NCBI GenBank assembly: GCA_951406725.2
Contig: OX597839.1
Span: 13,888,001 to 13,952,000 of the forward strand
Source of the DNA: Octopus vulgaris
Lineage: Eukaryota
Direction of reading: 5' to 3'
Length of the DNA: 64,000 nucleotides
Shown here: one piece after another, positions 32,149-58,052 of the stretch
How the letters are laid out: every line of letters starts with the position of its first letter
How positions within the stretch are numbered: position 1 is the stretch's first letter
Program-made: the position numbers and the translations under genes
The notes under the pieces: generated by a model
Database searches by the model: none
Told to the model about the DNA's origin: nothing
The model's input: the letters and a program-made list of their open reading frames with translations, nothing else

Positions 32149-32215
<67 letters not shown>

Positions 32216-35806: not shown

Positions 35807-37198
35807 TCACTTACTCATTCTAAAAGTTTCATTTTTTTCTTCTTCTTTTGTATTGTTTTTGATGAGGTGTTTGTATAGTTTTTTCGACAGGTATCGTTGA
35901 TACCCGCCTACCGCATTCGGAAATATTGTTTTCAGTATGTGGTGTTGTGCTTGTGTTATGTGTAAAATTCTGATGTGTTTCGGTGGTGTGGTGTGCGGAT
36001 GATTGTTTGTCTTAAAGTCATCTTCACAGATGACCATGTTGGATGTGATGTAGTCCATTAATTCTTTATTGTCTGTGTCTATTGCAGTTAGTTGTGTGTG
36101 TGGTTTTACGGGTTCATTACTTTTTTGATTGTCTAGGGGGATGTTGTCCTGTGTTAGATATCTCCCTGCTTTACTTCCTTGTTTGGTGGATTTTTTGGAT
36201 ATTTTTCTTTTACCCCCTGTGGCTATTTGCCATTCCGTCGAATTTTCGTCGTCAGACGTATCAGTATGGGGTAGAGGCAAAGCATTTGCATTACTATGTA
36301 TGCTTGTATAAATTGTTGATGTTTTGTGCGGTGTTTGTGTTGTTGTGGTGTTAGGGGTAGCATTTGTCTTCTCGTCACTGTTTTCTGTCTTTTTAATTGT
36401 CGTCCTAGGTGTGGGTGTTGGTCTATTTTTTGTTGATTCAACATGTTTAATTGGTTGTGACGTCAACGGTGATTGTGTTGGTAGTTTCTTTTCTTGGTGA
36501 TGTTGTTGTGGTTTGTTTGCTGGTTTGTTGTTTTTCTTGGCATTGTTCCATAATTGAATGTGTTGGTGTTGGTGTTGGCAACAAAGGGATTTTATTTGTT
36601 TTCTGATTTGTTCTTTCTGTACCAGATCGCACTTGGCAATTAAATGTTCGGGGCTGCCACATTTGTAGCATCTAGGCTTTTTGCCTTCTGCCACAACATA
36701 TAGGCATTGCCCATTTTCTAAGTGGATCTTATCCGGTAGGCTCTCGATAGAGGCCCCCTCAATCTGTATGGTCACCACTATTGTCTTCCCACCCCAAATG
36801 TCGCCAAGGTACACGGCGGTTTCCAAAATGTTGATATTTCTTAAATGGTAACAGATTGCCCCTGTTATCCATTTGTTAGGAATCTCGGGAGGTACATTTT
36901 TAATAGTGATTCGACTCACTCTCTGGTTTTTATAGTATGGGACCATGATGATTTCATCATTTCCCAGAGACTCAGTAGAGTGAGCTTTTGCCACTTCCTG
37001 GTTAGGGAAGCGGACCACTACTGTGTTAAACTGGGGACCCCAGTTTATATATTCTTTTTCTTTCATTATGTTTTTTAAGCATTTTTGTACATCTGTTTTT
37101 GTAATCTGTTCATTTAGTTTTTTGTTTTTCCTTATAATTTTATAAATAATTGTCATATTTTCTATTTCTTGCTTTATGTGTTGAGGTGTATGTAGCAC
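35807..37198 (-). CDS. Element A ORF1 with CCHC zinc knuckle; N-terminus probably in 37297..37683
   Basis: AEGKKPRCYKCGSPEHLIAKC, homologous to the other ORF1s, and directly upstream of ORF2. Confidence 0.8.
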   Translation of the reverse strand: MLHTPQHIKQEIENMTIIYKIIRKNKKLNEQITKTDVQKCLKNIMKEKEYINWGPQFNTVVVRFPNQEVAKAHSTESLGNDEIIMVPYYKNQRVSRITIKNVPPEIPNKWITGAICYHLRNINILETAVYLGDIWGGKTIVVTIQIEGASIESLPDKIHLENGQCLYVVAEGKKPRCYKCGSPEHLIAKCDLVQKEQIRKQIKSLCCQHQHQHIQLWNNAKKNNKPANKPQQHHQEKKLPTQSPLTSQPIKHVESTKNRPTPTPRTTIKKTENSDEKTNATPNTTTTQTPHKTSTIYTSIHSNANALPLPHTDTSDDENSTEWQIATGGKRKISKKSTKQGSKAGRYLTQDNIPLDNQKSNEPVKPHTQLTAIDTDNKELMDYITSNMVICEDDFKTNNHPHTTPPKHIRILHITQAQHHILKTIFPNAVGGYQRYLSKKLYKHLIKNNTKEEEKNETFRMSK

Positions 37199-37869
37199 TA
37201 AATCTTGTCCACGGGTTGTAAAGAGAGCTCTTGTTTCTATGAGCTCTTCATTTGTAAATGTTACAATCTCCTTCTGGCGAAGAGTGTCAGCGAAATTTAC
37301 TGGTGTTGTTTTTTTGTATTAACATCTTCACTATTAGATAGTTCATTTTTATTGTTGTTCTTGTTGTTGCTGTTGTTTTTGTCAATAGTTTTCGTGTGAG
37401 TTTTATTTTTATCATTTCTGTTGGTGGTGGTGGTGGTGGTGGTGGTGGTGGTGGTGGAGGTGGTGGTTGTAGCAGTAGTAGTCTCGTGGTTGCTGTTGTT
37501 AGTGGTGGTGGTGGCGGTGGTGACAGGGCTGTTACCGCACGTGGTTGCAGCGTTTATTTCACCGATATTCATGTTTGCATTTGGCGTGCGTACGTTCTTT
37601 TTTTCTCCTAGTGTTTCCAAACTAGGAAAATGCTGGTCCATAAAGGAACGCGACCAGCGTTCTACAATAAAATTTCTCGACATTTTCTAATGTCGAGAAG
37701 AAAATTACAGAAATGAAATGGGGTTGAAGCGAATTCCTCCCTTGGAAAAGCACTCAAACGAAAGTTGGGTGCCTTACACAACTTATTTACAAAAATGTAC
37801 ACAAAAATTGGGCTATAAATAGTCAAAATAAACGATTACCTTCGGAGCCGAGGTGACAACACGTCAGTC

Positions 37870-37944
<75 letters not shown>
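37870..37944. repeat. (GATA)n microsatellite flanking the element A 5' end
   Basis: Pure GATA run. A degenerate GATA run at about 31921-31996 lies on the other side. Confidence 0.97.
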
Positions 37945-38253
37945 GTGTGTGTGTAGACGCAGGCTCAGCTGTGTGCATAACAAGCCCGATTCCAAAATCT
38001 CATGGTCTTGAGTTCAGTGCCATTGCGCGGCAAATCTCTTTTTCTTTTATTACGGTCCTGGTCCACCAAAAACTTTATGAGTGGATTTAGTGCACGGAAA
38101 CTGAAAGAAGGTCTCCATGGCAGTTCGGCCACATAGAAACCGATTGCATAGAAAAACTAAAAATAAAAAAAAAATAAGTACTGGCACCGATTTGTGAGAT
38201 TAAAGCCGTCAAGGCAGTGTCCCAGTACGGTCGGTCTAATGAGACGATAAAAA

Positions 38254-38342
38254 GTCTTTCAAGGGAAATAACTCTAGCTCTACTATTAAATACTCCTACG
38301 ACGTATTTAATAGTAGAGCTCGAGTTATTTCCCTTGAAAGAC
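38254..38342. repeat. Hairpin inverted repeat with 40-bp arms
   Basis: GTCTTTCAAGGGAAATAACTC...GAGTTATTTCCCTTGAAAGAC. Confidence 0.88.
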
Positions 38343-38961
38343 AAAATTATCGTATCGTTAACAAACTCCATTTCAAATGTATGTTTTTCATTGTGATTCT
38401 TTGTTTCTTTACTAGCCACAAGGACCCAAAATAGAAGGGGACAAACAAGGACAGACAGGACACCACAGAGGGGACAAAATATAAAACGAATATGAATGAG
38501 ATGATTATATAGCAATGAGGTTATGAATGGCTACATGCGCCCCTCATCACGTGCAGTACTATTAATCTTTTTTTTTTTACAGTCCATTTTTATCATGTAC
38601 AAGCAATATCGCCCGGCGTTGCTCAAACCTTTAGAATTGGAATTTTTGAAAAGTAAAAAATTTGCATTATGTAGCTTGTTATTCTCTTTAAGTGAACATT
38701 TTTCTGGTTGAAATACACCGAAAAATGACGACACAGTAATAACAAAATCGTAAAAAATAGGGATTTTCATAGAAAAAAAGCACTTTTTGATGTAAATAAT
38801 TTTTGGTCTTAACATTTGAATTTTTTGAATTTTTTCTTCTACGATTTAAATTTTTTCTTCCACAGAAGGAAGAGCAAGCCTTCTTCTACCATACTCTCAA
38901 TTTTGGTCAACTTGCGCCGCAGGGTTTCGGAGAAGATAGTGTTAGTTGAAGGCTACCAACC

Positions 38962-39697
38962 CTTGATTTTTTATTATCCATAAGGACATACATGGAATGG
39001 ACGATACAATCACGGATGATTTGACATTTAAAGCGCAATTTGGGGTCGATAAAAAAATTTAACATGATTTTATATAAAATAAATGAATAAACAACACAAT
39101 GGACATTTTTTAAACAAATGGAGTGGGGCGGGTTTACGGACCCCACGAACCCCGCCTCTTCACTGACCTCGGTTTTTTGGCTTATCTCGCATCCACGAGA
39201 GACCTTTTATACATGACATTCTTCCATCTTTCATCAAACACTTTCTTACTCAGGCACCTCCTCCCCAGCCTTATTTGTCTCTTTAGGTGGAATATAAAAA
39301 TTTCCACCAAACCAGGAGCAGAGATGAAGTTGTCTGACATCAACCCTCTCATCCTTGTTTTCCATACTACCTGTTTCGCAACTGCAACCACAGAGAAAAA
39401 ACAATTCTTACCTTCTTTCGTTAAGAAATCCGGCGGGTCAATTTTCACTATGGATTCAGACGATAGCTGTCCTCCACCTGACAACAGTTGTTCGGCAAAA
39501 ACCCACATGTCTGACACCTCCGGACACTGCACAGATCGGGGTGTCGTGGCCACTATGCCTTGAGAGTTTATCCCGAACAGGTAAGGCACCTCGGTAACAC
39601 TGCCATGCCAAGGACTTCTGAAAATTATCCAGGGTCGAATGTACCTTAGAACAGTCTGGCCAGCTGATTATCGTCGAAACCTAGGGTCTCCCTTAAT
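38962..39697 (-). mobile_element. F1: 5'-truncated 3' fragment of a B-related Tx1-like LINE
   Basis: Reads ETLGFDDNQLA...NFQKSLAWQC...CPEVSDMW...FHLKRQI, followed by a degenerate tail. Confidence 0.88.
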
Positions 39698-41608
39698 GTT
39701 GTTTTATTATTACCCACTAGGGGCTACATAGATGGGACAATACAATCGGGAAAATGAATAATGAATTATGAAGTTTGTACAATGTGGTGTAATGCCCACT
39801 CGATCCCCGAAATCGAGCGGTTACATTTCGTCATTTGTTTTTTATTCGTCAACAATATTTTCCAAATAAAACATTTTATACATTTTCAACATACATTTCA
39901 AAAATTTTACAAAGTTCAACATTTTTTTTTTTTTTTTCAGGATTTAAAGTTCTTTTTATCATTTCCAAATTAAGTTTTCACAATACCTTTTCTTTTATAT
40001 ATACTCCATTATCTCTACCAAATCTGAGTAAACTTCCATCGTTCGTGGCCACCTTGTAAGTCGGCATTTCATATGTTTTGACACGTTCTTGCCAGCTGCC
40101 TCGATGAACGCCTCGGCGTCGTTCTCGTGGACGAGTGCACCTGTTTCTTTCCATTCGGTGCCCATCCTGACCCACGTATATCCATTTGTTACGTTTATTA
40201 AATCTTCCATCTCCTCACAGTGCCTGTGATGGATCAACGTTCCATAGTATTTGAATTTTCTATTCGTACCTACGTTTTCTCTAGTTTTTCTCTTAGGACT
40301 TACTTCCTCTTTTTTCTCCTCCCTCGGTTTCTCTCTTTCTCTCTTTTTGCTTTCTCTTCTTTCTTTTTCCTTCTCTTGTCTTTTTGGCTCTTTGTCTGCC
40401 GTCTCTCTACCCTGTGCCTTAAGTTCCTTTCCTGTTGTTTCTTTTCCTTTTTGCATACCATCTTTTCCTTTCTCTTGGTTCTGTTCCTTCGCTTGTTCTT
40501 TTCCTGCTTTTTCTCTTTCCTTTAATGTACTTTCCTTTTCTTTCTCTTGCTTCTGCCTTGGCTTCTTCTCCACTACTTCTGCACCCTGTGAATTTTGCTC
40601 CTTTTCTACTATCTTCTTCCCTTTGTTTTCATTTTCCTTCAGTGCGCTGTTACTTCCCTTCTCTTGTTGTTTCTCCGTTATTTCCTTTTCCTTGTTTTCA
40701 CTGTTCTTTCCTTCGTGTTCGTTTTCCTTCTCTCCACTTTGTGTCTCTTTTTGCTCCGCTGTGAATTCATACAGCGGGCATTCCTTTTTTATGTGCCCTC
40801 TTGATCCGCACAGGTAGCAATTCGGTTTTCTGCCTTCCACTATTACACTAATTGTTTTCTCGTTTTCTATTTCTATTTGGAAGGGAAATCTTTCGATGTC
40901 TTCTATTGTGGCCATCAGCCACAACTCTACTCCGAATCCCTTCCAATTTACAACGTTCGTCTCCTTAATTGACCCTATTTCTACTTCCTCTTTTGCTGCC
41001 CCAATAATGGCTGTTACCAGCATTTCTGTTTTAATATTTGGGGGCACCTTTGGGACTCTTACCCGTACCCCTCGTCTTCCTTTATACGTCGGCCACATGG
41101 TGAAATTTTCCGCTTTCAAGACAGTGGAAGCCAATGAGGCCGCCACTTCCTTTGTTGCGCATCTCACCTCCACCGTACCATATTTCTTTCCTCTGTCTAC
41201 AAAAGTCGCTTTTTTCATGATGTCCCCCAGACATTTCTCTATTTCTTCAATCGTCACTCTCACCAGTTTTCTCGTGTTTCTATCTTGCGTTCTATACGTT
41301 ATCGTCTTGTTATTTTTCTCTTCTATTGTTTCCACAGGCGGGACCAGCTTTACGCTGTCACCCTCCCTTTTGACGAACTTCTCGTATTCCTTCAATTGTT
41401 CTTTTCTAAAGAACACTTCTTTTATTCTAAGAGACTCGTCACTTTTTGTTGTGGCGACCCCCGCGTAAGTCTCCATGACTTGAGGGTCGACACACCTTCT
41501 ATAAAAGGTTCAAACACGCAGCGGCAAACGCCTCGCGCGATTAAATTTTTTGATAATTTTTAACAGTTTTTTTTCCAATTTTCACATACAAAATAACTCA
41601 CAACACAC
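39698..41608 (-). mobile_element. Element C: ORF1-only half-LINE
   Basis: Short 5' UTR, intact 493-aa ORF1, and a 3' UTR of about 300 bp ending in the B-type tail GCCCCTAGTGGGTAATAATAAAACAAC. No EN or RT. Confidence 0.85.
39995..41476 (-). CDS. ORF1-like nucleic-acid-binding protein (element C)
   Basis: RGKKYGTVEVRC, IVEGRKPNCYLCGSRGHIKKEC and a K/E-rich linker. The ORF is intact. Confidence 0.85.
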   Translation of the reverse strand: METYAGVATTKSDESLRIKEVFFRKEQLKEYEKFVKREGDSVKLVPPVETIEEKNNKTITYRTQDRNTRKLVRVTIEEIEKCLGDIMKKATFVDRGKKYGTVEVRCATKEVAASLASTVLKAENFTMWPTYKGRRGVRVRVPKVPPNIKTEMLVTAIIGAAKEEVEIGSIKETNVVNWKGFGVELWLMATIEDIERFPFQIEIENEKTISVIVEGRKPNCYLCGSRGHIKKECPLYEFTAEQKETQSGEKENEHEGKNSENKEKEITEKQQEKGSNSALKENENKGKKIVEKEQNSQGAEVVEKKPRQKQEKEKESTLKEREKAGKEQAKEQNQEKGKDGMQKGKETTGKELKAQGRETADKEPKRQEKEKERRESKKREREKPREEKKEEVSPKRKTRENVGTNRKFKYYGTLIHHRHCEEMEDLINVTNGYTWVRMGTEWKETGALVHENDAEAFIEAAGKNVSKHMKCRLTRWPRTMEVYSDLVEIMEYI

Positions 41609-43359
41609 GTGGGTAGATTTCTATTTCTTTATTACCCACCAGGGGGCGACACAGACATGGGGACATAGAACATTATAATTTAAAATTTATGAAAAATGAA
41701 TTGTTAAGTGAAAGAAAATGATAGTATGAAAGCGATACCAACGGCCCCATCCGTTAGCATCACTTACCTGTCCTTTGTTTTTCATAGTCACTTGAATGTT
41801 CTTTGCCAATACGAATAAATTCCATATCCATTCTTACTCCGAAATACTCATCCATATTTTCCACGAATTCATCGCTCATTCTTATATCTTTCACCTCCCA
41901 ATTGTCCCTTTCACACCTCACCATAAACTCACCTATGTTCTTCTTTTCAATCACAGCATACCTAGTCTCACCAACATCATACCATTTATACTCTTCCATT
42001 AGACTTTTAACTTCTTTCTGTTCAGTCATAGTACAAATGTACGGCCTGATATCGATTTCAATCTCTTGTGTGTGTGTATTCTTTTTTTTCTTTTGTTTTC
42101 TTGTTGGGTGGGAGCGGGTGGGTTCAATGTCTGCATGGATAGGGTGGGACTCAGAGGGCGTGGGTGGTTTTGGGGTAGATTGGTGTTCCATATTATTTTC
42201 TTTTCCACGTATTCTTCTCTTCCTCTTATTTCCAGCTTCCTTCCATTTCTGTGTATTCTCTTCCTCTTCTACTGTCTCCTTCTCCTCTGGTTTCTGCTTC
42301 TCTCTCTCTGGTTCGGAATCCATTTCTTTCCCTGGGGGAGGGCAGAAGGCTCTTATGTGACCCCTCAGGCCACACTTGTAACAACGTGGAGCCCTGCCCT
42401 CCACCCACACTCTCATGATCACGTCTCCCAATCTGATGCTTTCCGCCAGGTCCAACAGTACCTCGTTCTCCGCCTGTACGTTCAGCTCCACTGTTACGCC
42501 TCTCCAGCCCTCGGACTTAACCGAGGCATGGAGAATATCCACTTCGTCCTCGTGGCCGCTGATCACAGCCGCCACAATCCATTCTGCCTCCACGTTTGGT
42601 GGCACTCCCTCCACCCTTATTCGTGTAATCCTCCTGTTTAAATACGTAGGTAACAGTGTTACCTTTTCTGACTTCACCGCCTTCGCCGCCATCTTCCTCG
42701 CTGCAGACTCAGTTTTGAAATGCACAACTACGGTTCCGTACTTGGATCCTCGAGTCAGAAAATTAATTTCCTCCTCAGTTCTTCGCAGGGCTTCCTCTAT
42801 CCATTCCATGGTTACAACTTCTACCCTCTTCCTTTCGTTTGCGAACACCCTGTAAATAATGGTCCTCTTATCATACCATTCTTTTCTCCTGGGTTTTCGG
42901 TGATAGTTCCACCTCACCGCTTTCCTTTTTCATGTATTTCTGGTAACTTGGCAACTTGGCTATGTCGACCCCTTTCTCTTCCGCCTTCTTGCTTACACCG
43001 GCATAGGTATAACTCAGCTTCTCTTCCAATTTCCTTCCTGCCATTTCTAGCTCCTTCTCAGACGTAGACAAGTCTGATAAAGACTCGAAAACTCCAGCCT
43101 TTTCCTCCATCAGCTTCACTGCAATTGCCTGTTCCAGTTCCTCATCCGTCGTGGACAAGTCTGTTAGAGACTCATAGTCCATTTCCTTCTGTCTGACAGA
43201 CCGAAAACGGCCGCCAAAACAGAAAAAGTGTAACGCGCTGAACGAGCGAAACGCGAAACCGCGTCAACGCCGTTCAGAATTTCCACAACAACAACAACGC
43301 TTTCTGTTCTTTTTTACCGAATTTTACGAGCGTAAAAAAACACGACCGAACTCAAACAC
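41609..43359 (-). mobile_element. Element D copy 1: full-length ORF1-only half-LINE (one frameshift near 42900)
   Basis: ORFs 42871..43182 and 41760..42917. 5' end GTGTTTGAGTTCGG; tail GGTGGGTAATAAAGAAATAGAAATCTACCCAC. Confidence 0.87.
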
Positions 43360-43691
43360 GTGGGTAGATTTCTATTTCTTTATTACCCACCAGGGGGCGA
43401 CACAGAGGGGGACACCACAAGACATGGGGACATAGAACATTATAATTAAAATTTATGAAAAATGAATTGTTAAGTGAAAGAAAATGATAGTATGAAAGCG
43501 ATACCATCCGTTACCATCACTTACCTGTCCTTTGTTTTTCATAGTCACTTGAATGTTCTTTGCCAATACGAATAAATTCCATATCCATTCTTACTCCGAA
43601 ATACTCATCCATATTTTCCACGAATTCATCGCTCATTCTTATATCTTTCACCTCCCAATTCTCCCTTTCACAACTCACCATAAACTCACCT
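43360..43691 (-). mobile_element. Element D copy 2 (5'-truncated)
   Basis: Last 330 bp or so of D with a complete tail. Confidence 0.88.
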
Positions 43692-43695
43692 ACAC

Positions 43696-44217
43696 GTGGG
43701 TAGATTTCTATTTCTTTATTACCCACCAGGGGGCGACACAGAGGGGGACACCACAAGACATGGGGACATAGAACATTATAATTAAAATTTATGAAAAATG
43801 AATTGTTAAGTGAAAGAAAATGATAGTATGAAAGCGATACCAACGGCCCCATCCGTTAGCATCACTTACCTGTCCTTTGTTTTTCATAGTCACTTGAATG
43901 TTCTTTGCCAATACGAATAAATTCCATATCCATTCTTACTCCGAAATACTCATCCATATTTTCCACGAATTCATCGCTCATTCTTATATCTTTCACCTCC
44001 CAATTGTCCCTTTCACACCTCACCATAAACTCACCTATGTTCTTCTTTTCAATCACAGCATACCTAGTCTCACCAACATCATACCATTTATACTCTTCCA
44101 TTAGACTTTTAACTTCTTTCTGTTCAGTCATAGTACGGCCTGATATCGATTTCAATCTCTTGTGTGTGTGTATTCTTTTTTTTCTTTTGTTTTCTTGTTG
44201 GGTGGGAACGGGTGGGT
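43696..44217 (-). mobile_element. Element D copy 3 (5'-truncated)
   Basis: Last 520 bp or so of D with a complete tail and an 8-bp deletion between GTAC repeats. Confidence 0.88.
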
Positions 44218-45011
44218 GGAGGGCAGGGCTCCACGTTGTTACAAGTGTGGCCTGAGGGGTCACATAAGAGCCTTCTGCCCTCCCCCAGGGAAAGAAATGG
44301 ATTCCGAACCACAGAAAGAGAAGCAGAAACCAGAGGAGAAGGAGACAGTAGAAGAGGAAGAAAATACACAGAAATGGAAGGAAGCTGGAAATAAGAGGAA
44401 GAGAAGAATACGTGGAAAAGAAAATAATATGGAACTCCAATCCACCCCAAAACCACCCACGCCCTCTGAGTCCCACCCTATCCATGCAGACATTGAACCC
44501 ACCCGCTCCCCCCCAACAAGAAAACAAAAGAAAAAAAAGAATACACACACACAAGGGATTGAAATCGATATCAGGCCGTACATTTGTACTATGACTGAAC
44601 AGAAAGAAGTTAAAAGTCTAATGGAAGAGTATAAATGGTATGATGTTGGTGAGACAAGGTATGCTGTGATTGAAAAGAAGGACATAGGTGAGTTTATGGT
44701 GAGGTGTGAAAGGGAGAATTGGGAGGTGAAAGATATAAGAATGAGCGATGAATTCGTGGAAAATATGGATGAGTATTTCGGAGTAAGAATGGATATGGAA
44801 TTTATTCGTATTGGCAAAGAACATTCAAGTGACTATGAAAAACAAAGGACAGGTAAGTGATGCTAACGGACGGGGCCGTTGGTATCGCTTTCATTTTATC
44901 ATTTTTTCGTTTAACAATTCATTTTCATAAATTTTAATTATAATGTTCTATGTCCCCATGTCTTGTGGTGTCCCCCTCTGTGTCGCCCCCTGGTGGGTAA
45001 TAAAGAAATAG
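44212..45011 (+). mobile_element. Element D copy 4 (5'-truncated, + strand)
   Basis: Runs from WVEGRAPRCYKC to the tail GGTGGGTAATAAAGAAATAG. Confidence 0.88.
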
Positions 45012-45810
45012 ACGATAATCAGCTGGCCAGTCTGTTCCGACGTACGTTCGAGCCGAGGACACTGGACAACTTCCAGAAGTCTCTGGCATGGCAATGCTAC
45101 AGAGGAGCTCTACCTGTTCGGGATAAACTCGCAAGGCACGGTGGCCAAGACAGTCCGATATGTCCAAGATGCGGGCGGGATAGGGAAACCGTCCCGCACG
45201 CTATTGTTCATTGTCCGGACGTGTCTGAGGTGTGGGTTTATGCCGAACAGCTGTTGTCAGGTACACGAAGAGTACAGCTGTCGACTGAGTCGATTACAAA
45301 AATTGACCCACCGGATTTCCTCGTGAATGAAGGTAAGTTTCGTTTTCTCGTTGTAGTAGCAATTGCGAAAGAGGTGATATGGAAGACGAGAATGAAAGGT
45401 TTACAGTCAGGCAAGTTCATCTCCGGCCCTGGTTTGATGAAGTATTTCATCTTTCACCTGAAAAGGAAGATAGGGCTGGAGAGAATATGCCTGACTAGGA
45501 GAGTGTATGAAGAACGATGGAAGGATGTAGCACGAAAGTTGCGAGTGAAAGATACAACATAAATGTAATACCAAGCGCAACCAAAAGTATCAGTGGGGAG
45601 GCGGGGCTCGTGGGGTCCGAGCTAAACCCGCACCCACTCCACCCGTAATGTCTTCCGGTCTGTCCCATCATTCGATTTCTGTCCATTTATTGTAATTCAT
45701 GAAAATTTTTAAATCCGATTTATTGTAAAAACCCATTCGTTTGTCTGTCCCCATCATCAGATTGTATTGTCCCATCTATGTTCGCCCCTTGTGGGTAATA
45801 ATAAAACAAC
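45011..45810 (+). mobile_element. F2: 800-bp 3' fragment of LINE B
   Basis: Near-identical to 50224-51023, with scattered SNPs. Confidence 0.92.
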
Positions 45811-46051
45811 ATTAAGGGAGACCCTTGAACACATGGAGGAAATCAATTTTTTGCGTGTATAGTAAGTTATTATATTGTGTATATTTTCTCCATTGTGATC
45901 TACTGTGTGTCTAGCTGTCTTTTTGTGTTGTTGTACAACGATTGAAGTCGGCCTTCGTGCGAGGGCTTAGTGTTGGTGTTCCCCCCTCCGTGGGGGAAAA
46001 ACTATCATTATCTTGGTTGTGCCAAGGGCTTGCTAAAGCCAGTTATCGGAG

Positions 46052-47368
46052 ATGGAATCCCCCATCTCTGATTCACCTGTGACAAGTGATACAGGATCAC
46101 CGGCGGTGTCACCAAAGAAAAGAGAGGCGGGGTCGCCAAAGAAAAAAGATATTCCAGCACCAGCGAGAAAATTTTCTGAAGTAGCTGGGAAGAAAATTAA
46201 AAAAATTAATGTAGACAACCTGGGAAAACATGCGGACTGTGTGTCAAAAGAGGGCACGGAAGTAACCGTGGCTTCAAACGCCCAAATACAGGAGGAAATT
46301 TCGAATAGGAGAATAATCTATAAGACATTCAGTATAACAAGCAGAGCAATCCAAAAAATAGAGGAGAAAAAGATCGAAAACTGCTTAAAGCCAATAATGG
46401 ATAAAATTACGTATATCAATCGAGGGAAGAAATACGGCACAGTGGAGGTGAGATTCACGTCAGAGGAGGTAGCGAAGAAGCTATCCATGGAACCCATAAA
46501 AGCGGAGGATATTGTTCTCCTACCCCTGTATAAAGGCAAGAGAACTTCCAAGATCACAATGAACAACATCCCGCCAGAAGCGGATGCCGAAATCCTAGTG
46601 GCAGCAGTTATGGTAGGCCTGGAGGAAAAAATAAACATCCTCCAGGCCACCGTAGAAGAAGAAGAATTCTGGAAAGGGCAAAAGATAATAATAGCCATAC
46701 AAGCTGAAGTACAAACCCTGGAAGAGATCCCAGAGACTCTAAGGATAAGCGAAGATGAAAGAGTCACAGTCTTCGTAGAGGGCAGAAAGCCGAGGTGCTT
46801 CGGCTGCGGTAAGAAGGGGCATGTAAGGGCGGAATGCCAGCCCCAACCCAAACCGCAGGAAGCAGCTCAGCCAAGTGGAAAAGAAGAAGCCGTGTCATCA
46901 GAAACAGCGCTGGTCGGCCCAGGAGGGACGACTGAAGGTGTGGAGGTGACAGAGGCAGCGGAACCAACGGAGGAGGAAAAAAAGAGCGAGGAAACGAAAA
47001 AGGAGGAGGGGTGGTCAAAAATCACTAGAAAAAAAAGAAAAACTGAAACCACCCCTCCCAAAGTAAACCAAAAAAAAAAAAGGGAGTCATTGAACTCATT
47101 TATGGCCGTTAAGGCCACGAACAATAGACTCGGAAATGTGTTGGCAGCGATGGCCAAAGTAGAAAAAATAGGGAGGAAAAACGACTATGTTTTGTACAGA
47201 ATAGGCCGGAAGGATTACGGACGGATAAAGTCCGAATTTTTCCATGACGTAGGCCCGCTCAGAATGGATATAACATCTCCATATATATTCGAGGGCCTAC
47301 GTCAGACTCCCCCACGAGGCCCAGAAAAAGAGAAGGAAGAAGAAGAAAAAACCGAACCACTGATATAA
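46052..47368 (+). CDS. Element B ORF1 (438 aa, CCHC knuckle)
   Basis: RGKKYGTVEVRF, LLPLYKGKR and FVEGRKPRCFGCGKKGHVRAEC. Confidence 0.88.
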   Translation: MESPISDSPVTSDTGSPAVSPKKREAGSPKKKDIPAPARKFSEVAGKKIKKINVDNLGKHADCVSKEGTEVTVASNAQIQEEISNRRIIYKTFSITSRAIQKIEEKKIENCLKPIMDKITYINRGKKYGTVEVRFTSEEVAKKLSMEPIKAEDIVLLPLYKGKRTSKITMNNIPPEADAEILVAAVMVGLEEKINILQATVEEEEFWKGQKIIIAIQAEVQTLEEIPETLRISEDERVTVFVEGRKPRCFGCGKKGHVRAECQPQPKPQEAAQPSGKEEAVSSETALVGPGGTTEGVEVTEAAEPTEEEKKSEETKKEEGWSKITRKKRKTETTPPKVNQKKKRESLNSFMAVKATNNRLGNVLAAMAKVEKIGRKNDYVLYRIGRKDYGRIKSEFFHDVGPLRMDITSPYIFEGLRQTPPRGPEKEKEEEEKTEPLI

Positions 47369-47377
47369 AGGTAAGTA

Positions 47378-50300
47378 ATGGATTACATTTATGTTGGTTG
47401 TTTAAATGTGCGCGGCCTGGGAGCAGGCTGGAAGCAAGGTCGCTTCCTGCATGATATCAGGTCGCGTAATTTAGATGTTATTGTTGCTACAGAAACCCGG
47501 TTAGAGGGGCCAAGAGGTCTACTCCCGCTGTTTGACGGCTACGAGAGTTTTTTCTCTCCTGGCAGTCCTACAGGCGGGAGTGGGGTGTTGGTCCTATTAA
47601 AAAGAAACCGGGTTTCTGAGAAAAAGTTAATTTTTGCAGATCCAGAAGGTAGGCTGGTCGTCATGGATTTGACGTTCAGTAACGGTAAAGTTATCAGACT
47701 GGTTGCAATTTACGCACCCAACAGTACAGGGCAAAGTGATTATTTTCGTGAACTAGAAAACTTTCTTGGTACTTCGCATTCATTAGTGGTGCTAGGAGAC
47801 TTTAACACAATTTGCAAAGCGGATGTAGATTGTGTTGGCTCGCGTCCAGATAGAAAAGGCAACAGTGGCTTCATGGAACTGCTAAGCCGCTTTGAGCTAG
47901 CAGATCCTTATAGGATGGAATTTCCGAACGCTCCATTGTGGACATGGTCAAACAGCGACGGATCTTCCAGGTCATATCTAGATAGAATACTAATTAGAAA
48001 AGTAGACAGTAAAATAGCTAAGTGTCCACAGTTTTACCCGATCAGCTACAGTGATCATAAAATGGTCACTTGTAAGCTTGACATAGATAAGGTTAAAAAT
48101 AGAGGATCCGGTTACTGGAAACTTAATACGTCCCTTTTGGCGATTAAGGAGTACAAAGACCGGATTAGGAATATAATTCAGAGGGCACTATCTGGTACCA
48201 TCATTAATAACAAATGGTGGTACGCCCTCAAACGAGCCATCAAGTTTGAGTCTATTAGATATAGCATAGGAGTAGTGGCTAGAGAGGCTAGAAGGGAAAC
48301 TATTCTAGTTAAGGAATTAGAGGAAGCCATGAAAACTGGCTCTGCGGCTCAGGTGGCGGCCAAGAGACTGGTGTTAAACCAGCACCTCGAGGCCAAACAC
48401 ATGGGCTGCATTGTCAGGGCTAGAATCCGTCATATGGGATGTGAAGGAATCAACGCCGTGAGATGGGCCCGAGTGGTGGAAGCTCAGCATGGTAACGATG
48501 CCACGATTCGATCTTTGACGAACCAACAAGGTGAGTTGATAAACGAACCCGAGGAGATGTGTGAGGCCTTTCAGGAGCACTTCGCTCAGCTTTTCGGTGA
48601 GTGCGGCGGACTGGATAGAGGAGGAGGGCCTTTACGGACCTACTCGACGGTCTGCCGCGCTTATCGGGGCGAGATGCGGAGGGCTGTGAAGGGCCAATCA
48701 CGCCTGAGGAGGTGGTTGAGGCAATGGCGGACTGCGGCGCGGGCAAGGCGCCGGGTTTGGATGGTCTACCCTATGAGTTATATAAGAGTATGCCAGACTT
48801 GTTCGGGCACCTACTGGCGGAGGTCTACGCGAACTGGCAGCAGAACGGGCTTATACCCAGATCTGTGCGCCGGGGAGTAGTGACTCTCGTCAGAAAGGAC
48901 CCGAGCAAGGGGGAGTGCATTGATGATTTCAGGCCCATCACTCTGCTAAACACAGAGTTGAAGATTTTGGCCAAAGTGTTATCGAAAAGATTGGCGCGTG
49001 TCGCGGATGGTCTGATCGGAGGGGCACAGACATGTGCCGTTCCGGGCAGATCCATTCAGGATAATCTCCATCTAATGTGGTACACTATAGAGGGGTTTAA
49101 TAGTGATTCTGGCAAGGGTGGGGCACTGGTCCATTTAGACCAATCTAAAGCTTTTGATAGGGTCGACCATCGTTACCTGGTATCTGCCCTGGCACAGTTC
49201 GGGCTGAGCCTTGGCTTCCTCAGGTGGATTATCGAAATTTATGATAACATCGACTCGGTAGTTCGGGTGAACGGCTTCTTGTCGAAGCCGTTCAAAATCA
49301 AACGCTCGGTTCGTCAAGGGTGTCCGCTCTCCCCGCTTTTGTACGTGATGGCTCTTGAGCCATTACTGCGAAAACTGAGCGGCATCCCGAGACAGCCAGG
49401 TAATGGAAAATCAGTGTCAGCGTACGCGGATGACATCACCATCATCGTAACCGAAATGGACCACCTATGTAAAGTAGGCAAGGCCATAGAGGTTTACGAG
49501 ACGGTGACAGGAGCAAAAGTGAATCGCGAAAAGTCAGTCGGCTTGCAACTCGGCACCTGGAGAGGCAAGTCGATGCCTCCTGACAGCGTCGTGGGACGTT
49601 GGACGGAGGGTCCGATTAAACTGCTAGGGGTCTGGTTCGGTCCAGACCTCCAAATAGAGAAGAATTGGGGCGAGGTAACGAGCAAGGTGGCTGCAGTAGC
49701 CAAGACCTGGTCTTGGCGGTGGCTATCCCTGAAAGGGAGGGCGGAGGTGGCCAATGTGTTTATCGCATCGGTTATCACCTACCGCCTTTCCGTCGTTCCT
49801 TGCCCTGATTCGTGGTTGATCAAGTTGGAAAGACAGCTCTTCTACTTCTTGTGGAAGGGCGGGAAACCACTTGTGAAACGCTCTACTTGCTGTCAACAAC
49901 CGTTAAAGGGTGGGCTAGGGATGCCTTGGCTGATGATGCGCAGACATGCGCTGAGGTTAAGACATCTGTGGCTCTACCTGGATGGTGAACGGGTGTGGTC
50001 TTCGCTAGCAAAACTGATGTTTCCCAAGTTCACTAGTTTCGGTGGATGGGAAACCTGGCTGAATCGTAGATCGAAACTTGGTACTTGGTACACGGAGTGT
50101 CGCAAGGCTCTCCTGCTATTCCGTCGCTCGGGCAACGCCTGCGGTGGGGGTTCCACCACATTCTTCTATAGAGGGTTGGTAGAGGCGGAATGTGAAGATA
50201 CCTTGGGGGAAACCCTAGGTCTCGACGATAATCAGCTGGCCAGTCTGTTCCGACGTACGTTCAGGCCGAGGACACTGGACAACTTCCAGAAGTCTCTGGC

Positions 50301-50775
50301 ATGGCAATGCTACAGAGGAGCTCTACCTGTTCGGGATAAACTCGCAAGGCACGGTGGCCAAGACAGTCCGATATGTCCAAGATGCGGGCGGGATAGGGAA
50401 ACCGTCCCGCACGCTATTGTTCATTGTCCGGACGTGTCTGAGGTGTGGGTTTATGCCGAACAGCTGTTGTCAGGTACACAAAGAGTACAGCTGTCGACTG
50501 AGTCGATTACAAAAATTGACCCACCGGATTTCCTCGTGAATGAAGGTAAGTTTCGTTTTCTCGTTGTAGTAGCAATCGCGAAAGAGGTGATATGGAAGAC
50601 GAGAATGAAAGGTTTACAGTCAGGCAAGTTCATCTCCGGCCCTGGTTTGATGAATTATTTCATCTTTCACCTGAAAAGGAAGATAGGGCTGGAGAGAATA
50701 TGCCTGACTAGGAGAGCGTATGAAGAACGATGGAAGGATGTAGCACGGAAGTTGCGAATGAAAGTTACAACATAA
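47378..50775 (+). CDS. Element B ORF2: APE endonuclease, RT and Zn finger, with a single frameshift near 48620
   Basis: GCLNVRGL, LGDFN, SYLDRIL, SDHKMV, KAPGLDGLP, DQSKAFDRV, RQGCPLSP, AYADD and CPRC...HAIVHC. The 3398-nt span is one base short of an open frame. Confidence 0.92.
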
Positions 50776-51023
50776 ATGTAATACCAAGTGCAACTAAAAG
50801 TATCAGTGGGGAGGCGGGGCTCGTGGGGTCCGAACTGAACCCGCACCCACTCCATCTGTAATGTCTTCCGGTCTGTCCCATCACTCGATTTCTGTCCATT
50901 TATTGTAATTCATGAAAATTCTTAAACCCGATTTATTGTAAAAACCCATTCGTTTGTCTGACCCCATCATCAGAATGTATCGTCCCATCTGTGTTCGCCC
51001 CTTGTGGGTAATAATAAAACAAC

Positions 51024-52708
51024 GTGTTTGAGTTCGGTCGTGTTTTTTTACGCTCGTAAAATTCGGTAAAAAAGAACAAAAAGCGTTGTTGTTGTTGTGG
51101 AAATTCTGAACGGCGTTGACGCGGTTTCGCGTTTCGCTCGTTCGGCGCGTTACACTTTTTCTGTTTTGACGGCCGTTTTCGGTCTGTCAGACAGAAGGAA
51201 ATGGACTATGAGTCTCTAACAGACTTGTCCACGACGGATGATGAACTGGAACAGGCAATTGCAGTGAAGCTGATGGAGGAAAAGGCTGGAGTTTTCGAGT
51301 CATTATCAGAGTTGTCTACGTCTGAGAAGGAGCTAGAAATGGCAGCAAGGAAATTGGAAGAGAAGCTGAGTTATACCTATGCCGGTGTAACCAAGAAGGC
51401 GGAAGAGAAAGGGGTCGACATAGCCAAGTTGCCAAGTTACCAGAAATACATGAAAAAGGAAAGCGGTGAGGTGGAACTGGCACCGACACCCAGGAGAAAA
51501 GAATGGTATGATAAGAGGACCATTATTTACAGGGTGTTCGCAAACGAAAGGAGGAGGGTGGAAGTTGTAACCATGGAATGGATAGAGGAGGCCCTGCGAA
51601 GAACTGAGGAGGAAGTTAGTTTTCTGACTCGAGGATCCAAGTACGGAACCGTAGTTGTGCATTTCAAAACTGAGTCTGCAGCGAGGAAGATGGCGGCGAA
51701 GGCGGTGAAGTCAGAAAAGGTAACACTGTTACCTACGTATTTAAACAGGAGGATTACACGAATAAGGGTGGAGGGAGTGCCACCAAACGTGGAGGCAGAG
51801 TGGATTGTGGCGGCTGTGATCAGCGGCCACGAGGAGGAAGTAGATATTCTCCATGCCTCGGTTAAGTCCGAGGGCTGGAGAGGCGTAACAGTGGAGCTGA
51901 ACGTGCAGGCGGAGACCGAGGTACTGTTGGACCTGGCGGAAAGCATCAGACTGGGAGACGTGATCATGAGAGTGTGGGTGGAGGGCAGGGCTCCACGTTG
52001 TTACAAGTGTGGCCTGAGGGGTCACATAAGAGCCTTCTGCCCTCCCCCAGGGAAAGAAATGGATTCCGAACCACAGAAAGAGAAGCAGAAACCAGAGGAG
52101 AAGGAGACAGTAGAAGAGGAAGAAAATACACAGAAATGGAAGGAAGCTGGAAATAAGAGGAAGAGAAGAATACGTGGAAAAGAAAATAATATGGAACTCC
52201 AATCCACCCCAAAACCACCCACGCCCTCTGAGTCCCACCCTATCCATGCAGACATTGAACCCACCCGCTCCCCCCCCCCCCAACAAGAAAACAAAAGAAA
52301 AAAAAGAATACACACACACAAGAGATTGAAATCGATATCAGGCCGTACATTTGTACTATGACTGAACAGAAAGAAGTTAAAAGTCTAATGGAAGAGTATA
52401 AATGGTATGATGTTGGTGAGACTAGGTATGCTGTGATTGAAAAGAAGGACATAGGTGAGTTTATGGTGAGGTGTGAAAGGGAGAATTGGGAGGTGAAAGA
52501 TATAAGAATGAGCGATGAATTCGTGGAAAATATGGATGAGTATTTCGGAGTAAGAATGGATATGGAATTTATTCGTATTGGCAAAGAACATTCAAGTGAC
52601 TATGAAAAACAAAGGACAGGTAAGTGATGCTAACGGACGGGGCCGTTGGTATCGCTTTCATTTTATCATTTTTTCGTTTAACAATTCATTTTCATAAATT
52701 TTAATTAT
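51024..52708 (+). mobile_element. Element D copy 5: complete 5' end, poly-C frameshift, terminal tail cut off by the inversion
   Basis: ORFs 51201..52361 and 52358..52627. Starts GTGTTTGAG immediately after the B tail. Confidence 0.88.
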
Positions 52709-53624
52709 TCTTCTCTTCCTCATATTTCCAGCTTCCTTCCATTTCTGTGTATTTTCTTCCTCTTCTACTGTCTCCTTCTCCTCTGGTTTCTGCTTCTCTT
52801 TCTGTGGTTCGGAATCCATTTCTTTCCCTGGGGGAGGGCAGAAGGCTCTTATGTGACCCCTCAGGCCACACTCGTAACAACGTGGAGCCCTGCCCTCCAC
52901 CCACACTCTCATGATCACGTCTCCCAGTCTGATGCTTTCCGCCAGGTCCAACAGTACCTCGGTCTCCGCCTGCACGTTCAGCTCCACTGTTACGCCTCTC
53001 CAGCCCTCGGACTTAACCGAGGCATGGAGAATATCTACTTCCTCCTCGTGGCCGCTGATCACAGCCGCCACAATCCATTCTGCCTCCACGTTTGGTGGCA
53101 CTCCCTCCACCCTTATTCGTGTAATCCTCCTGTTTAAATACGTAGGTAACAGTGTTACCTTTTCTGACTTCACCGCCTTCGCCGCCATCTTCCTCGCTGC
53201 AGACTCAGTTTTGAAATGCACAACTACGGTTCCGTACTTGGATCCTCGAGTCAGAAAACTAACTTCCTCCTCAGTTCTTCGCAGGGCCTCCTCTATCCAT
53301 TCCATGGTTACAACTTCCACCCTCCTCCTTTCGTTTGCGAACACCCTGTAAATAATGGTCCTCTTATCATACCATTCTTTTCTCCTGGGTGTCGGTGCCA
53401 GTTCCACCTCACCGCTTTCCTTTTTCATGTATTTCTGGTAACTTGGCAACTTAGCCATGTCGACCCCTTTCTCTTCCGCCTTCTTGGTTACACCGGCATA
53501 GGTATAACTCAGCTTCTCTTCCAATTTCCTTGCTGCCATTTCTAGCTCCTTCTCAGACGTAGACAACTCTGATAATGACTCGAAAACTCCAGCCTTTTCC
53601 TCCATCAGCTTCACTGCAATTGCC
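52706..53624 (-). mobile_element. Element D copy 6 (internal fragment, inverted)
   Basis: Runs from AIAVKLMEEK to KWKEAGN; differs from copy 5 by SNPs. Confidence 0.85.
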
Positions 53625-55360
53625 CGAATGAAGACGGGACATTACAAGACGGGATACATAGTGGGGTACATAAAGTAAAAATAAAATATGAAATAAAGAT
53701 GAATTATATGTAATGAGATGGAACGGCTTACGAACCCCCAACTCGCAGTTCTGTTTAAAATACAATTTTACATTTTATACTTTTACAATTTACAATTTTA
53801 CATTTTAACATTACATATATTCCAGTTCAAAATACAATTTTACATTTTACAATTACAATGTTACAATTTTAAAATCTCAGTTCTATTGGACGTTGGTCCG
53901 TAATGTACTTTGTCAACTCCATCTGCTCCACCACATTTGGCAAATTCTCATAACATACGTAATACGTTGAATAAACCTGCTCAAACATACTTTTCAATTT
54001 ACAAAATGTTCCTTTATCTACAAGTACCGCTTTCATATCGTCATCATGCAGTTCTATGTGTAATGTAACCCTAATTAATCCCTTCCTACCTGCAAGTCTT
54101 TTCTCCGCTTATGTGTCTTTCACATATAACATGAATACTTTCAGGTATTTTCCTTCAGGTCTTTTTCCTTTTTTACATGCATCCAACTGTTCTCTCACTT
54201 TTTTTCTCCATTCTAAGTGTACCTCTGTCTTTTCGTCCTTTTCTTTGCACGTTCTCTCTTTTTCTTCTGTTGTCTTGCTTTTGGTTTTTTTCTTTTTTAG
54301 AACTTTCGGTGGTGATTCCACCCTTGTTCTCTTCCTATCTCCTGTTCTTTCCTCCTCTGCACTTGCACGTTCTTCTTCCATATCCTCATTTAGCTGCTCC
54401 TCCGTTTGTGCATCCACTGCTTTTGTTTCTTCCTGCACTTCTCCCTCCTCCACACACGTATCTTTACACTCCTTCGTTACCGCCTCCGGTGCTATGGTTT
54501 TCTTCAGCGGGCACACATCCTTCATGTGGCCTCTTAATTTACAATTATAGCAGACTGGGGGTCTTCCCTCTACCACGACTCTAAGCCGTGTCTCATCAGG
54601 AAAGACCAACTCCTCCGGGATGTTGTACAGGTCTCGCACGGTTATATGTGCCAGAACCTGCACCGCATATCCCCACCACTTAACCTCTGTTGACTTCTCC
54701 ACCTTCAACACCTCCACACTTTCCTTGCAGTTAAAAACTACTGCCGCTAATAACCTCTCCATATTAAATTCGGGCGCAATTCTACCAATTCTTATCCTCA
54801 CTGCCCTCCTTCCGCAGTAACTTGGTAGTAAAGTCCAACTTTCCGTTTTCAAAATTCTTGTTGCATTCTTTTTTGCTTCATTCTCATTTTTAAAATGTAC
54901 CACCACTGTGGCATATTTCCTTCCTCTTTTGAAAAATGTGGGTTCACCCTCAATTTCCTTCAGACACTTTTCTACTTCTTCCGTTTCTGCTACTTCAACT
55001 TTTTTCGACGCCACACACCATGTCCTGTACGTTATCATACGCTTCTCCGCGTTGCTTTCTTCCTCCTCGGGCGGTGTGACTCTCACGCAGTCACCCTCCC
55101 TCTTCAAACTGTCGAAATACTTCTCTAGAGTTTTCTGTTCGACCACCACATCTTCCATTTCCAGTTCACTGGCAACTAGGCCTCTGCCTGCTGCTCTCGC
55201 ATAAGTCTGCTCTTGCATTTTCAAAAATCTCCAAAAAAAAAAACTTTTCCACGTCCTCCAACGAACTCGAACTCACAAGCTCTTCACAATGACGCACTCG
55301 AAACAAACACACCACAATAACCAAAAAAAAAGAGGGTGGTGATATTTGCCTCGACTTCAT
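53625..55360 (-). mobile_element. Element E: ORF1-only half-LINE
   Basis: ORF1 followed by a 3' UTR ending TGTAATGTCCCGTCTTCATTCG (compare B/F2 TGTATTGTCCCATCTATGTTCG). No ORF2. The 5' boundary is approximate. Confidence 0.78.
53869..55224 (-). CDS. Element E ORF1 (about 451 codons, one internal TAA at 54109-54111)
   Basis: RGRKYATVVVHF and VVEGRPPVCYNCKLRGHMKDVC. The frame stays open for 79 codons past the TAA. Confidence 0.75.
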
Positions 55361-55462
55361 AATTGTATATATGTATACTCAGTGAAGTTTATTCACTGAG
55401 TATCAAAATAAGAAATATTGAATTTCTAAATCTCTCGTAGAGACATGTACGGTGGTGGGGCG

Positions 55463-55753
55463 ATAGAATGGTTGTATACTGTCAATCTAACAAGAACGTG
55501 ACAGTAGGGGGTACACCACCGTTGTATAGCCCTAGGAGGCATCGAACGTCGATGAAGGACAATGATCCTGAAACACGGTGTCCCTAGATGCAGTTCCGGC
55601 GGCCGGGGGTGTTTGTCTCCCCTTCGTATATGTATATAAGGACACAGGGGAAAATGTGTCGAAGCTATCAGGAGGCGTTCGATGCCTCCTAGGGCTATAC
55701 AATGGTGGTGTACCCCCTACTGTCACGTTCTTGTTAGATTGACAGTATACAAC

Positions 55754-55761
<8 letters not shown>
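55463..55761. repeat. Inverted repeat (86-bp arms) with a hammerhead-like motif in the spacer
   Basis: 55463-55548 pairs with 55676-55761. The spacer reads CGATGA-AGGA-caatga-TCCT-GAAAC-ACGGT-GTC. It abuts (TA)n. Confidence 0.88.
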
Positions 55762-55807
<46 letters not shown>

Positions 55808-56529
55808 TAGCAGAGATACCTGGCGTTGCCCGGTTACATTCAATTGAAGAATTAAACTTTTCTGTTATGTTTTCTGTAATGAACTGGAATATCTGTTTCG
55901 AATTTCATCAAAATTGCAGATGAGTGTTATTTCCCTCTTTACACACCCAAACAAAATTGTAATCATGCCACATGTATCTCATACTACTGATTTTTATGCG
56001 CATATTCCAAAATTCCAGTCTTATTGAACCTGTTAAAAAGATTTTGCTCCTGAAAAATGAAGGCCATGGAGCTCTAAAATGTGAGAGTTAAGGCCCCTAT
56101 TGGAGGTGGGCATCTTAATGTCAACCAGAGAAGTTGAATTGTTGAGAATCTTTTTAACTTGGGTCTTTTATCTATTGTTTGAATTTCTTTGTAATAGGAA
56201 ATATATGTTCCCTGGGTTTGTAAAAGAAAGCAAAGCTACAGGAAACCAAAAGACGAATGATCACAATGAGCAGTCAGCTACCCTACCCTAGTTGTTACCA
56301 CTCCCAATGTAGGATTCTTCACCATCCAGGTGACAGGCACGGCCGTAAGATGCATTACGAATCTATAGCAATTGGAAGGGCGACACCCAACTGAAATCAA
56401 TATTAACAACTGAGTGACGTGAGGGCTAAGGAGAAATATATTAGTACAGGACGTCAAAAAAACGTGAGCAACCTGAGAAACGAGAAGATGGAGAAATAAA
56501 AATGTATTCTCATCTGCACTAGTTTGTTT

Positions 56530-56880
56530 GCATCTTTCATTTTATCTCTCCTTCCTTCTTTCTTTGTTTCTTTCATTTTATCTCTCCTTCCCTTCCTTAC
56601 TCAACTCTCTTCCTCCCCTTCTTTCATTTTATCTCTCCTTTCTTTCTTTCTTTCAGTTTATCTCTCCTTCCTTCCTCCTATCTCTCCTTCTTTCTTTCCT
56701 TCCTCCCCCTCTTTCATTTAATCTCTCCTTCTTTCTTTCTCTTCCTTTCTCAACTCCCTCCCTTTCTTTAATTCTATCTCTCCTTTCTTTCTTTCATTTT
56801 ATCTCTCCTTCCTTCTTTGTTTCATTATTTTTTTCCTTCCTTCCTCTTTCTTTATTTATTTATTCATTTATTATACATTC
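56530..56880. repeat. Pyrimidine-rich degenerate minisatellite (TCTTTCATTTTATCTCTCCTT units)
   Basis: Seen directly. Confidence 0.85.
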
Positions 56881-57177
56881 ATTCACTATTTCATGCTGAG
56901 TTCAAAATTTATCTTACTTTCCGCCTGTCAAACATATTTCCGTAACTAATTTTACTTTCGCTATTTTAGTGTTTATTTATTTAATTAATTAATTTAACGT
57001 CCGCTAAGCGTCGGATTCGTTTTAATTTCATTCCTATGTTGACAGAAAAGTAAATCATTTTGCGTGCGAGTACGCATGCGCGTGTATTCCAAGCGTAGCT
57101 ACGTATGTATGAATGCAAATGTTGGGTTGTCAGATAAATCCGTTCGTTTTCTCCCCCTCCTCATTGATCTTAATCTG

Positions 57178-57514: not shown

Positions 57515-57519
57515 AAGAA

Positions 57520-57950: not shown

Positions 57951-58052
57951 ATAATAATAATACTAATAATGATAATAATAATTGTTTCTAATAAGCACAA
58001 AGCAAGCAACTTTAGCAGGCATTTTATCTTAACAATCCCGGAGGAATTAACG

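Follow-up and report, generated by a model that had tools for sequence, protein, structure and literature searches.

Long interspersed nuclear elements (LINEs) that insert site-specifically into other transposons are known from the Tx1 clade, in which Tx1L targets Tx1D, and Tx1-Mar and SINEU-3 target Mariner-N4_AMi (PMC4494074). Here we analysed a chain of eleven retroposon units within 64 kb of Octopus vulgaris DNA (contig OX597839.1, positions 13,888,001 to 13,952,000; this whole stretch is called the window, and coordinates are positions within it). The array consists of one L1/Tx1-type LINE (B), 3′ pieces of two LINE families (F1 and F2), and units of the families C, D, and E, which encode only the first open reading frame (ORF1) of a LINE. 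Going by the account in PMC4494074, the octopus elements resemble the Tx1-clade LINEs in their site-specific insertion into a non-autonomous DNA transposon, in passengers that share the target, and in tandem copies that sandwich a target-site duplication (TSD) of ~16 nt. In contrast to them, the octopus target is a Helitron, the passengers encode ORF1, and the arrays, which grow to 20 units or more, combine several families in a set order, every family having a target type of its own.

Drosophila R1 arrays are also described as growing when a new copy enters the TSD at the 5′ end of an older one (PMC2718515, PMC5932611), but R1 is a single autonomous family in ribosomal DNA that, according to PMC2718515, averages at most 2–3 copies per inserted unit, whereas in octopus several ORF1-only families are scattered over some 100 sites or more, and the leaders of elements serve as targets too. 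Head-to-tail arrays that mix a non-autonomous element with partners encoding a reverse transcriptase (RT) are described for HeT-A/TART/TAHRE (bioRxiv 10.1101/782904); those extend chromosome ends, whereas the octopus arrays are internal, form TSDs, show no age gradient, and are closest to L1 among solved structures. HAL1 elements are likewise non-autonomous L1-type derivatives that encode ORF1p only and arose several times, but they are described from mammals, and the HAL1 account in PMC5753468 mentions neither site specificity nor arrays. In R2Ol, downstream target sequence at the RNA 3′ end raises insertion accuracy and efficiency (PMC6795142); there it refines one fixed target, whereas here it is proposed to set the target of a lineage. 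As far as these sources go, tandem insertion into a duplicated target, transposon-targeting Tx1 elements, ORF1-only HAL1, and mixed HeT-A arrays are already known. We found no account in the literature of Helitron-targeted multi-family ORF1-only arrays, nor of such arrays in octopus; Repbase and supplements (e.g., the repeat library of PMC13282606) may list the families.

The array in the window is probably the product of about ten target-primed insertions, each at a short target in an earlier unit, followed by an inversion and a deletion. The 17-mer GAAATCTACCCACGTGT is present three times, on each side of D1 and of the truncated D2. It is not D sequence; it is the 5′ end of C, as also found in the C copies at loci L282 and L283. 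The combination of an element tail with this 17-mer occurs three times in the 2.8-Gb genome, always in the window. A 16-mer, ACATTAAGGGAGACCC, is coding sequence of the second open reading frame (ORF2) of family F, and is also found inside ORF2 of 10 other F copies. In the window it follows the tail of C, and an inverted copy follows the tail of F2, before the leader of B. A tail with this 16-mer occurs twice genome-wide, both times in the window and in opposite orientation, which indicates that the block was built at this locus and that one copy was then inverted. As the duplications around the units derive from the locus, each unit would have needed a new nick here, and their uniqueness argues for serial target-primed insertion over template jumping. 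F2 starts 8 nt beyond the place that corresponds to the 16-mer by homology, which is where it should start if target homology ended the F2 cDNA.

The window holds an atypical, rearranged array, and its locus-unique duplications would record the order of insertion. F would first have entered the Helitron H2, and C would then have used a target mimic within the ORF2 of F. D1, D2, D3, and D5 would have followed at the 5′ end of C, B at the leader of C, F2 at the duplicated 16-mer, and D4/D6 at a point 8 nt into F2. E would have inserted independently into the repeat R3, and a deletion would later have placed it beside D6. D6 and D4, which overlap in D coordinates, may be two halves of one copy, hence about 10 insertions instead of 11.

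Self-alignment and ORF mapping divided 38962–55330 without gaps into eleven segments (Table 1). A preliminary description, made from the letters alone, had called the region a gap-free concatemer of eleven units; its order and strands stand, and the right end moves to 55330, as 55331–55360 is host repeat. It had also remarked that no long microsatellite lies between the units, although the flanks are full of them, and indeed perfect microsatellites of at least 24 nt cover 0 of 16,369 bases inside the array versus 2,147 of 47,631 outside, while TRF detected nothing but weak low-complexity tracts inside the units. Its statement that each tail is joined directly to the next 5′ end needs correction: the orientation is tail-to-head at 7 of 10 junctions when spacers are allowed, and five joins carry one of the two duplications as a spacer. 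The remaining junctions are D3/D4, which is head-to-head with a 6-nt overlap (44212–44217), D5/D6, a tail-to-tail fold-back at 52706–52708 with both tails missing, and E/D6, where the E tail is short by ~25 nt and the join shows GGC microhomology. D5 (51254–52172) and D6 are 99.5% identical and form a 919-bp inverted repeat with a loop of ~530 nt, the arms differing at 5 of 919 positions; D4 and D6 differ at 2 of 199 bases. D4, D5, and D6 are mutually 99–99.5% alike, and D1–D3 make up a second group; D1 and D5, which differ by 2.7%, are nearest relatives of one another.

Table 1. Units, duplications, and flanking host repeats of the array (positions within the window).
Feature	Position	Strand	Description
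Host repeat H2, downstream part	38600..38961	-	Other H2 copies have a Helitron-like 5′ start; preferred target of family F
F1	38962..39699	-	3′ 738 nt of the second LINE family: ORF2 end, 3′ untranslated region, tail ...GGATAATAAAAAATC
16-mer ACATTAAGGGAGACCC, copy 1	39684..39699	-	F ORF2 coding sequence resembling the Helitron target; C insertion site
C	39700..41621	-	Full-length ORF1-only element; 5′ end is GAAATCTACCCACGTGT
17-mer GAAATCTACCCACGTGT, copy 1	41605..41621	-	C's own 5′ end
D1	41622..43355	-	Full-length ORF1-only element, ORF disrupted
17-mer GAAATCTACCCACGTGT, copy 2	43356..43372	-	Duplicate of C's 5′ end
D2	43373..43691	-	5′-truncated D, 319 nt; 17-mer at each side
17-mer GAAATCTACCCACGTGT, copy 3	43692..43708	-	Duplicate of C's 5′ end
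D3	43709..44217	-	D1-like, 3′ part only; head-to-head breakpoint at its 5′ end
D4	44212..45010	+	3′ part of a D5-like copy; overlaps D3 by 6 nt
F2	45011..45808	+	Last 798 nt of a B-family copy; 97% identity with B
16-mer ACATTAAGGGAGACCC, copy 2	45809..45824	+	Orientation opposite to copy 1
B	45825..51022	+	Full-length L1/Tx1-type LINE; leader TTGAACACATGGAGGAAA copies the Helitron target
D5	51023..52708	+	D with intact 5′ end; last ~69 nt (tail, AATAAA) missing
D6	52706..53624	-	Internal D segment; 3′ third missing
E	53625..55330	-	ORF1-only element; last ~25 nt missing
Host repeat R3, upstream part	55331..55800	-	365-bp unit; family E target at two other loci

Similar arrays are found throughout the genome. 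Matches to the D 5′ end cluster ~1.75 kb apart on many contigs, and all arrays in the 18 regions examined are one-directional. In 14 of 17 arrays the 3′ end falls on one and the same base, ACATGGAGGAAAGCACC, of a ~1.0–1.2-kb non-autonomous Helitron, H1, which by its terminal features has a hairpin followed by a CTAG-type end at 22 of 29 loci and a 5′ ATC.. start at most. Among 30 H1 loci, 20 are empty, 5 are filled (query included), and 5 lack the site; by exact pattern, 102 filled and 364 empty sites exist genome-wide. Array sizes were taken from the first 45 listed filled junctions, which represent 44 loci, with arrays exceeding 10 kb, of which there are many, counted as lower bounds. Thirteen of these loci hold a single unit (L297 among them, where the short AT-rich stretch that separates the two target copies is perhaps no unit), 31 hold at least two, and 18 at least four. 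Single insertions bounded by TSDs, including B, C′, and E, are present at C16a, C4a, C8d, C9a, and C8c, and a truncated one at L290; at L264, L268, and C3c, duplications lie between units. At C16a, C8d, L290, and L264, the duplication around the single or truncated unit measures 15–16 nt. At L268, a local ACAGCG variant recurs at the 5′ flank and at all 4 inner joins. With less than 1% between most units and their closest relative, the system is young. A junction pattern had 0 matches in metagenome contigs.

Three observations concern the insertion sites themselves. H1 has a TATAAA 36–39 nt before the nick. A parallel array system is present at L219–L229, where C-related tails are found at a second H1 site (ACAA^TTCCAGTCTG) as well as on leaders of units that reproduce this site. 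At L092/L093 (C3c), a B dimer occupies a promoter-like site with CCAAT-like and E-box-like motifs by eye; a 15-nt duplication stands on either side of the dimer and again between its two units.

The choice of target follows the family. Of 243 junctions found, 240 could be typed; as arrays were sampled via D or B 5′ ends or host junctions, the proportions are not genome-wide rates. Tails of B, C, C′, and D′ lie on ACATGG-type sites in 93 of 96 cases and on D-type leaders in 0 of 96, and tails of D, Dq, and E′ lie on D-type leaders in 97 of 135. B used the host site in 33 of 42 cases, and C′ a unit leader in 23 of 24. Exceptions to the rule are one B3 tail in C10c and the B–D5 junction in the window. 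Target type also runs in sub-lineages: among 91 D copies, the downstream class equals that of the nearest relative at another locus in 10 of 24 non-default cases versus 1.9 in shuffles (20,000; p about 1e-4), and 9 of 12 D copies on ACATGG sites have their nearest other-locus relative on the same site type.

A possible carrier of this memory is the RNA end. The AATAAA of these elements lies 3–6 nt before the element end. RNA cleavage takes place downstream of AATAAA, and would therefore fall inside the downstream neighbour. The element RNA would end in 10–20 nt of this neighbour, the stretch would anneal at the nick, and progeny would return to the site type of the parent, with C, D, and E served in trans by a B-type ORF2. 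By itself, this rule would yield the usual order of D-type units, then D′, C/C′, B, and host. Together with the annealing seen in R2Ol, the target rule and the AATAAA position favour a target memory carried by 3′ read-through RNA, the end of which is predicted. Target change in site-specific LINEs is usually ascribed to the endonuclease. As the families, and D sub-lineages 97–99% alike, keep different targets while probably sharing one ORF2, an RNA-guided contribution is directly testable. Should the proposal hold, target specificity would be encoded in RNA, could be inherited as well as switched, and would give rise to the ordered multi-family chains in Helitrons.

Several results weigh against serial insertion with an inherited target. 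Loci with at least four units (18 of 44) far exceed the expectation of 0.03 (Poisson) or 0.46 (Yule). Such clumping is far stronger than simple re-use of duplicated targets would give. The excess has to come from the inherited-target rule or from hot loci, and the formation of concatemers would account for it as well. An age gradient along arrays was not found (first versus last unit 18 versus 20, p 0.80; rho 0.13, p 0.20). In at least five cases elsewhere, a tail is joined to a truncated unit and no duplication is present (C2a, C14a twice, C8b, and L156), which fits template jumping or homology-guided deletion. The variants of inner leaders are often unlike the host site of their own locus (C23a, C3a), which means that RNA, and not a fresh duplication, is the origin of many leaders. 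D copies on T2 sites matched their nearest relatives in 0 of 4 cases. Finally, short-read contigs of four runs over 43300–45950 contained neither the joint nor a spanning piece, a result that shows only high copy number.

The preliminary description had offered serial template jumping between co-packaged RNAs, alongside repeated insertion at element 5′ ends, and had named TSD-bounded single insertions as evidence for ordinary nesting. Such insertions of B, C′, and E exist; the insertion route is supported by the duplications that bound units here and at L264, L268, L290, and C3c; and the genome-wide count that it suggested gave the 102 filled sites and the 31 of 44 multi-unit loci described above. 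We therefore do not retain template jumping as the main cause. A single reverse-transcription event that copied several co-packaged RNAs one behind the other, and so made most of the array in one step, would account for the clumping, for the missing age gradient, for the many lineages that the tree finds among the units of one array, and for the tails on truncated units without duplication, of which D4–F2 is an example here. We nevertheless consider it unlikely, as locus-derived duplications flank even truncated units (D2, L264) and the L268 variant stands at every join, all of which needs a fresh nick per unit, and as no duplication is shared by the two outer ends of the array. Serial insertion is also supported by the first 30 (of 103) exact D tails, all of which are followed by a unit or by the Helitron base. 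End-to-end template jumping is not known to need homology in R2, and the strict tail-to-neighbour rule of the typed junctions would not be expected from it. D1 and D5 also differ by 2.7%, and the units of an array are unequal in their numbers of private mutations (chi-square 177 on 51 df), a comparison confounded by RNA editing and by sources that were not sampled. For the truncated units at C2a, C14a, C8b, and L156, template jumping is possible.

D-led arrays have lost the upstream ACATGG copy and kept a recurrent host–D junction, and some inner units carry 10–70 nt of host upstream flank. This suggests that leaders may be co-transcribed from the host and joined at their 5′ ends by homology.

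A different version of serial insertion would let the ORF1 protein of each family, or distinct ORF2 variants, pick the site instead of the RNA end. HeT-A Gag may pick the site at telomeres. The deep divergence of the ORF1-only families under purifying selection and the dependence of target choice on family would agree with such a role. We regard it as quite unlikely, because target type also tracks D sub-lineages that are 97–99% identical, and because the junction used by a local D lineage is absent from the rest of the genome.

Serial insertion also leaves the two-strand layout to be accounted for, and a later inversion is its best reading. That the two 16-mers face opposite ways points to an inversion of D4–F2–B–D5, and once this is undone every unit has the same strand. 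Two events are likely to have followed the insertions, this inversion, of 8.5 kb, and a deletion. The left end lies in H2, a Helitron-like repeat whose sequence follows 7 of 30 F 3′ ends (F1 of the window included). The right end lies in R3, where E is found elsewhere as a TSD-bounded single insertion at two loci, with a duplication of 12–16 nt. As the reciprocal halves of the H2 and R3 sites are missing, the 16.4 kb would join two independent sites via a deletion. Inverted inserts with the same two junction types are present in 2 of 40 regions (L265, 1038–1978; L286, 4806–5549); they are inverted partial copies inside a D and a B that begin near the insertion point, the one at L286 with a ~15-nt duplication.

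These inserts, and the end of D5 just short of its tail, would also be compatible with a read-through RNA of the array that was re-inserted backwards as D4–F2–B–D5 in a twin-priming-like manner, without a DNA inversion. This is very unlikely, as the F2–B junction has no source copy elsewhere in the genome and D6 is D5-like while D3 is D1-like, so that they are not two halves of one target copy. Moreover, copying of multi-unit transcripts was not seen genome-wide, neighbours sharing descent in 3 of 151 pairs versus 1.4 expected. That the inversion and fold-back are an assembly artefact is highly improbable despite the repetitive region and the short-read result, since the arms of the fold-back and the D4/D6 pair carry differences unlike a palindromic read and the same junction types recur at L265 and L286; an artefact here would leave the genome-wide system untouched.

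Private changes in the 91 D copies comprise 78 A>G versus 20 T>C (p 5e-5), and clusters of 8–15 A>G changes each are present in six of the copies (C3a unit 3, L262, L273, C10c, C10b, and C20a). Clustered A>G fits the copying of RNA edited from adenosine to inosine (A-to-I). Such clusters were not found among the private changes of the D copies in the window (0–2 each). As D5 has lost its AATAAA, its transcript is predicted to run into D6 and to fold as a 919-bp hairpin. The hairpin gives a testable form to the suggestion of the preliminary description that the array could be a dual-strand piRNA source; no RNA data set was among the listed matches. We tentatively combine these points in the proposal that ORF1-only elements of long standing form a guild with one LINE enzyme in common, that each of their lineages inherits its landing site, RNA-encoded and switchable, via neighbour bases at the RNA 3′ end, and that the hairpin and antisense RNA of the inverted array feed the A-to-I editing of D copies.

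The LINE of the array, B, encodes an ORF1 of 438 aa (46052–47368) and an ORF2 (47378–50775) with endonuclease, RT, and zf-RVT domains and a frameshift near 48617; an intact ORF2 of 1131 aa is present in 4 of 12 B copies. Its domain matches (Exo_endo_phos 7e-14, RVT_1 1e-30, zf-RVT 1e-8) are those of an L1-group LINE, and the RT is nearer to L1 ORF2p (E 1e-42) than to R2 (1e-25), the only families with solved structures among the matches. The target preference, for one base of H1 with a duplication of about 15–16 nt, is of the Tx1 type. No named Tx1 protein was among the 120 matches listed, nor in the clusters examined. The Tx1 label for B is thus our assumption, from features that we take to be typical, beside the report of L1-Tx1 in octopus. 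Octopus repeat papers, as far as their repeat classes go, give L1-Tx1 as a class only (PMC13282606, PMC8967140). Named cephalopod relatives of the RT among the matches listed are from Argonauta (58%) and Sepia (49%). Unnamed ORF2 relatives (P0012, P0015, P0016; 43% identity) form clusters of 385–732 members in ENA assemblies, which points to a high copy number of this lineage in another host.

C, D, and E are 1.7–1.9 kb long and have a single ORF homologous to B ORF1, with 493 aa in C (41476–39995; CCHC knuckle, zf-CCHC E 2.5e-5) and 369 aa in E (55218–54109). Amino acid identity is 26–31% among the ORF1-only families and to B, and between C and C′ a dN of 0.25 and a dS of 1.46 indicate purifying selection. 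The tails of B, C, and D lack poly(A) and finish with CCCCTWGTGGGTAATAA and a few further bases; the tail of C and D is that of B, and E has its own. In encoding ORF1 only, keeping a LINE-type 3′ end, and moving as a unit, for which C′ and E provide TSD-bounded singles, C, D, and E are HAL1-like. Judged by the shared tail and target, they are probably mobilised in trans by a B-type ORF2. The arrays are a non-telomeric parallel to HeT-A for the question of why ORF1 is under selection without ORF2.

Further elements were observed elsewhere in the window. The Rfam search of 38000–58000 gave no hammerhead or other match above gathering score, and seven weak miRNA-precursor matches; a 124-bp palindrome at 38237–38360 attracts weak matches of this kind, below gathering scores. 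At 55805–55835 (minus strand), about 500 bp right of the array, is the hairpin and CTAG end of another Helitron-like repeat. Retroelement fragments without a Pfam match lie on the minus strand at 171–1347 (Penelope-like by eye, with an RT followed by a GIY-YIG-type motif) and 29900–30980 (RTE-like by eye). An abundant SINE-like repeat (short interspersed nuclear element) at 21793, 21977, and 23806 (plus) and 57284 (minus) has the tail GCCCCTTGTGGGTAATAAAGAAATA, as in D and B, and a tandemly repeated 3′ part of ~185 nt, and is a candidate passenger of these LINEs. Another L1/Tx1-type LINE, A, at 31990–37870 (minus), is 68% identical to B over 2.6 kb, has a broken ORF2, and lies about 1 kb away from the array, with other DNA in between. 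It is flanked at both ends by a (TATC)n microsatellite, which suggests a GATA/TATC-targeting family.

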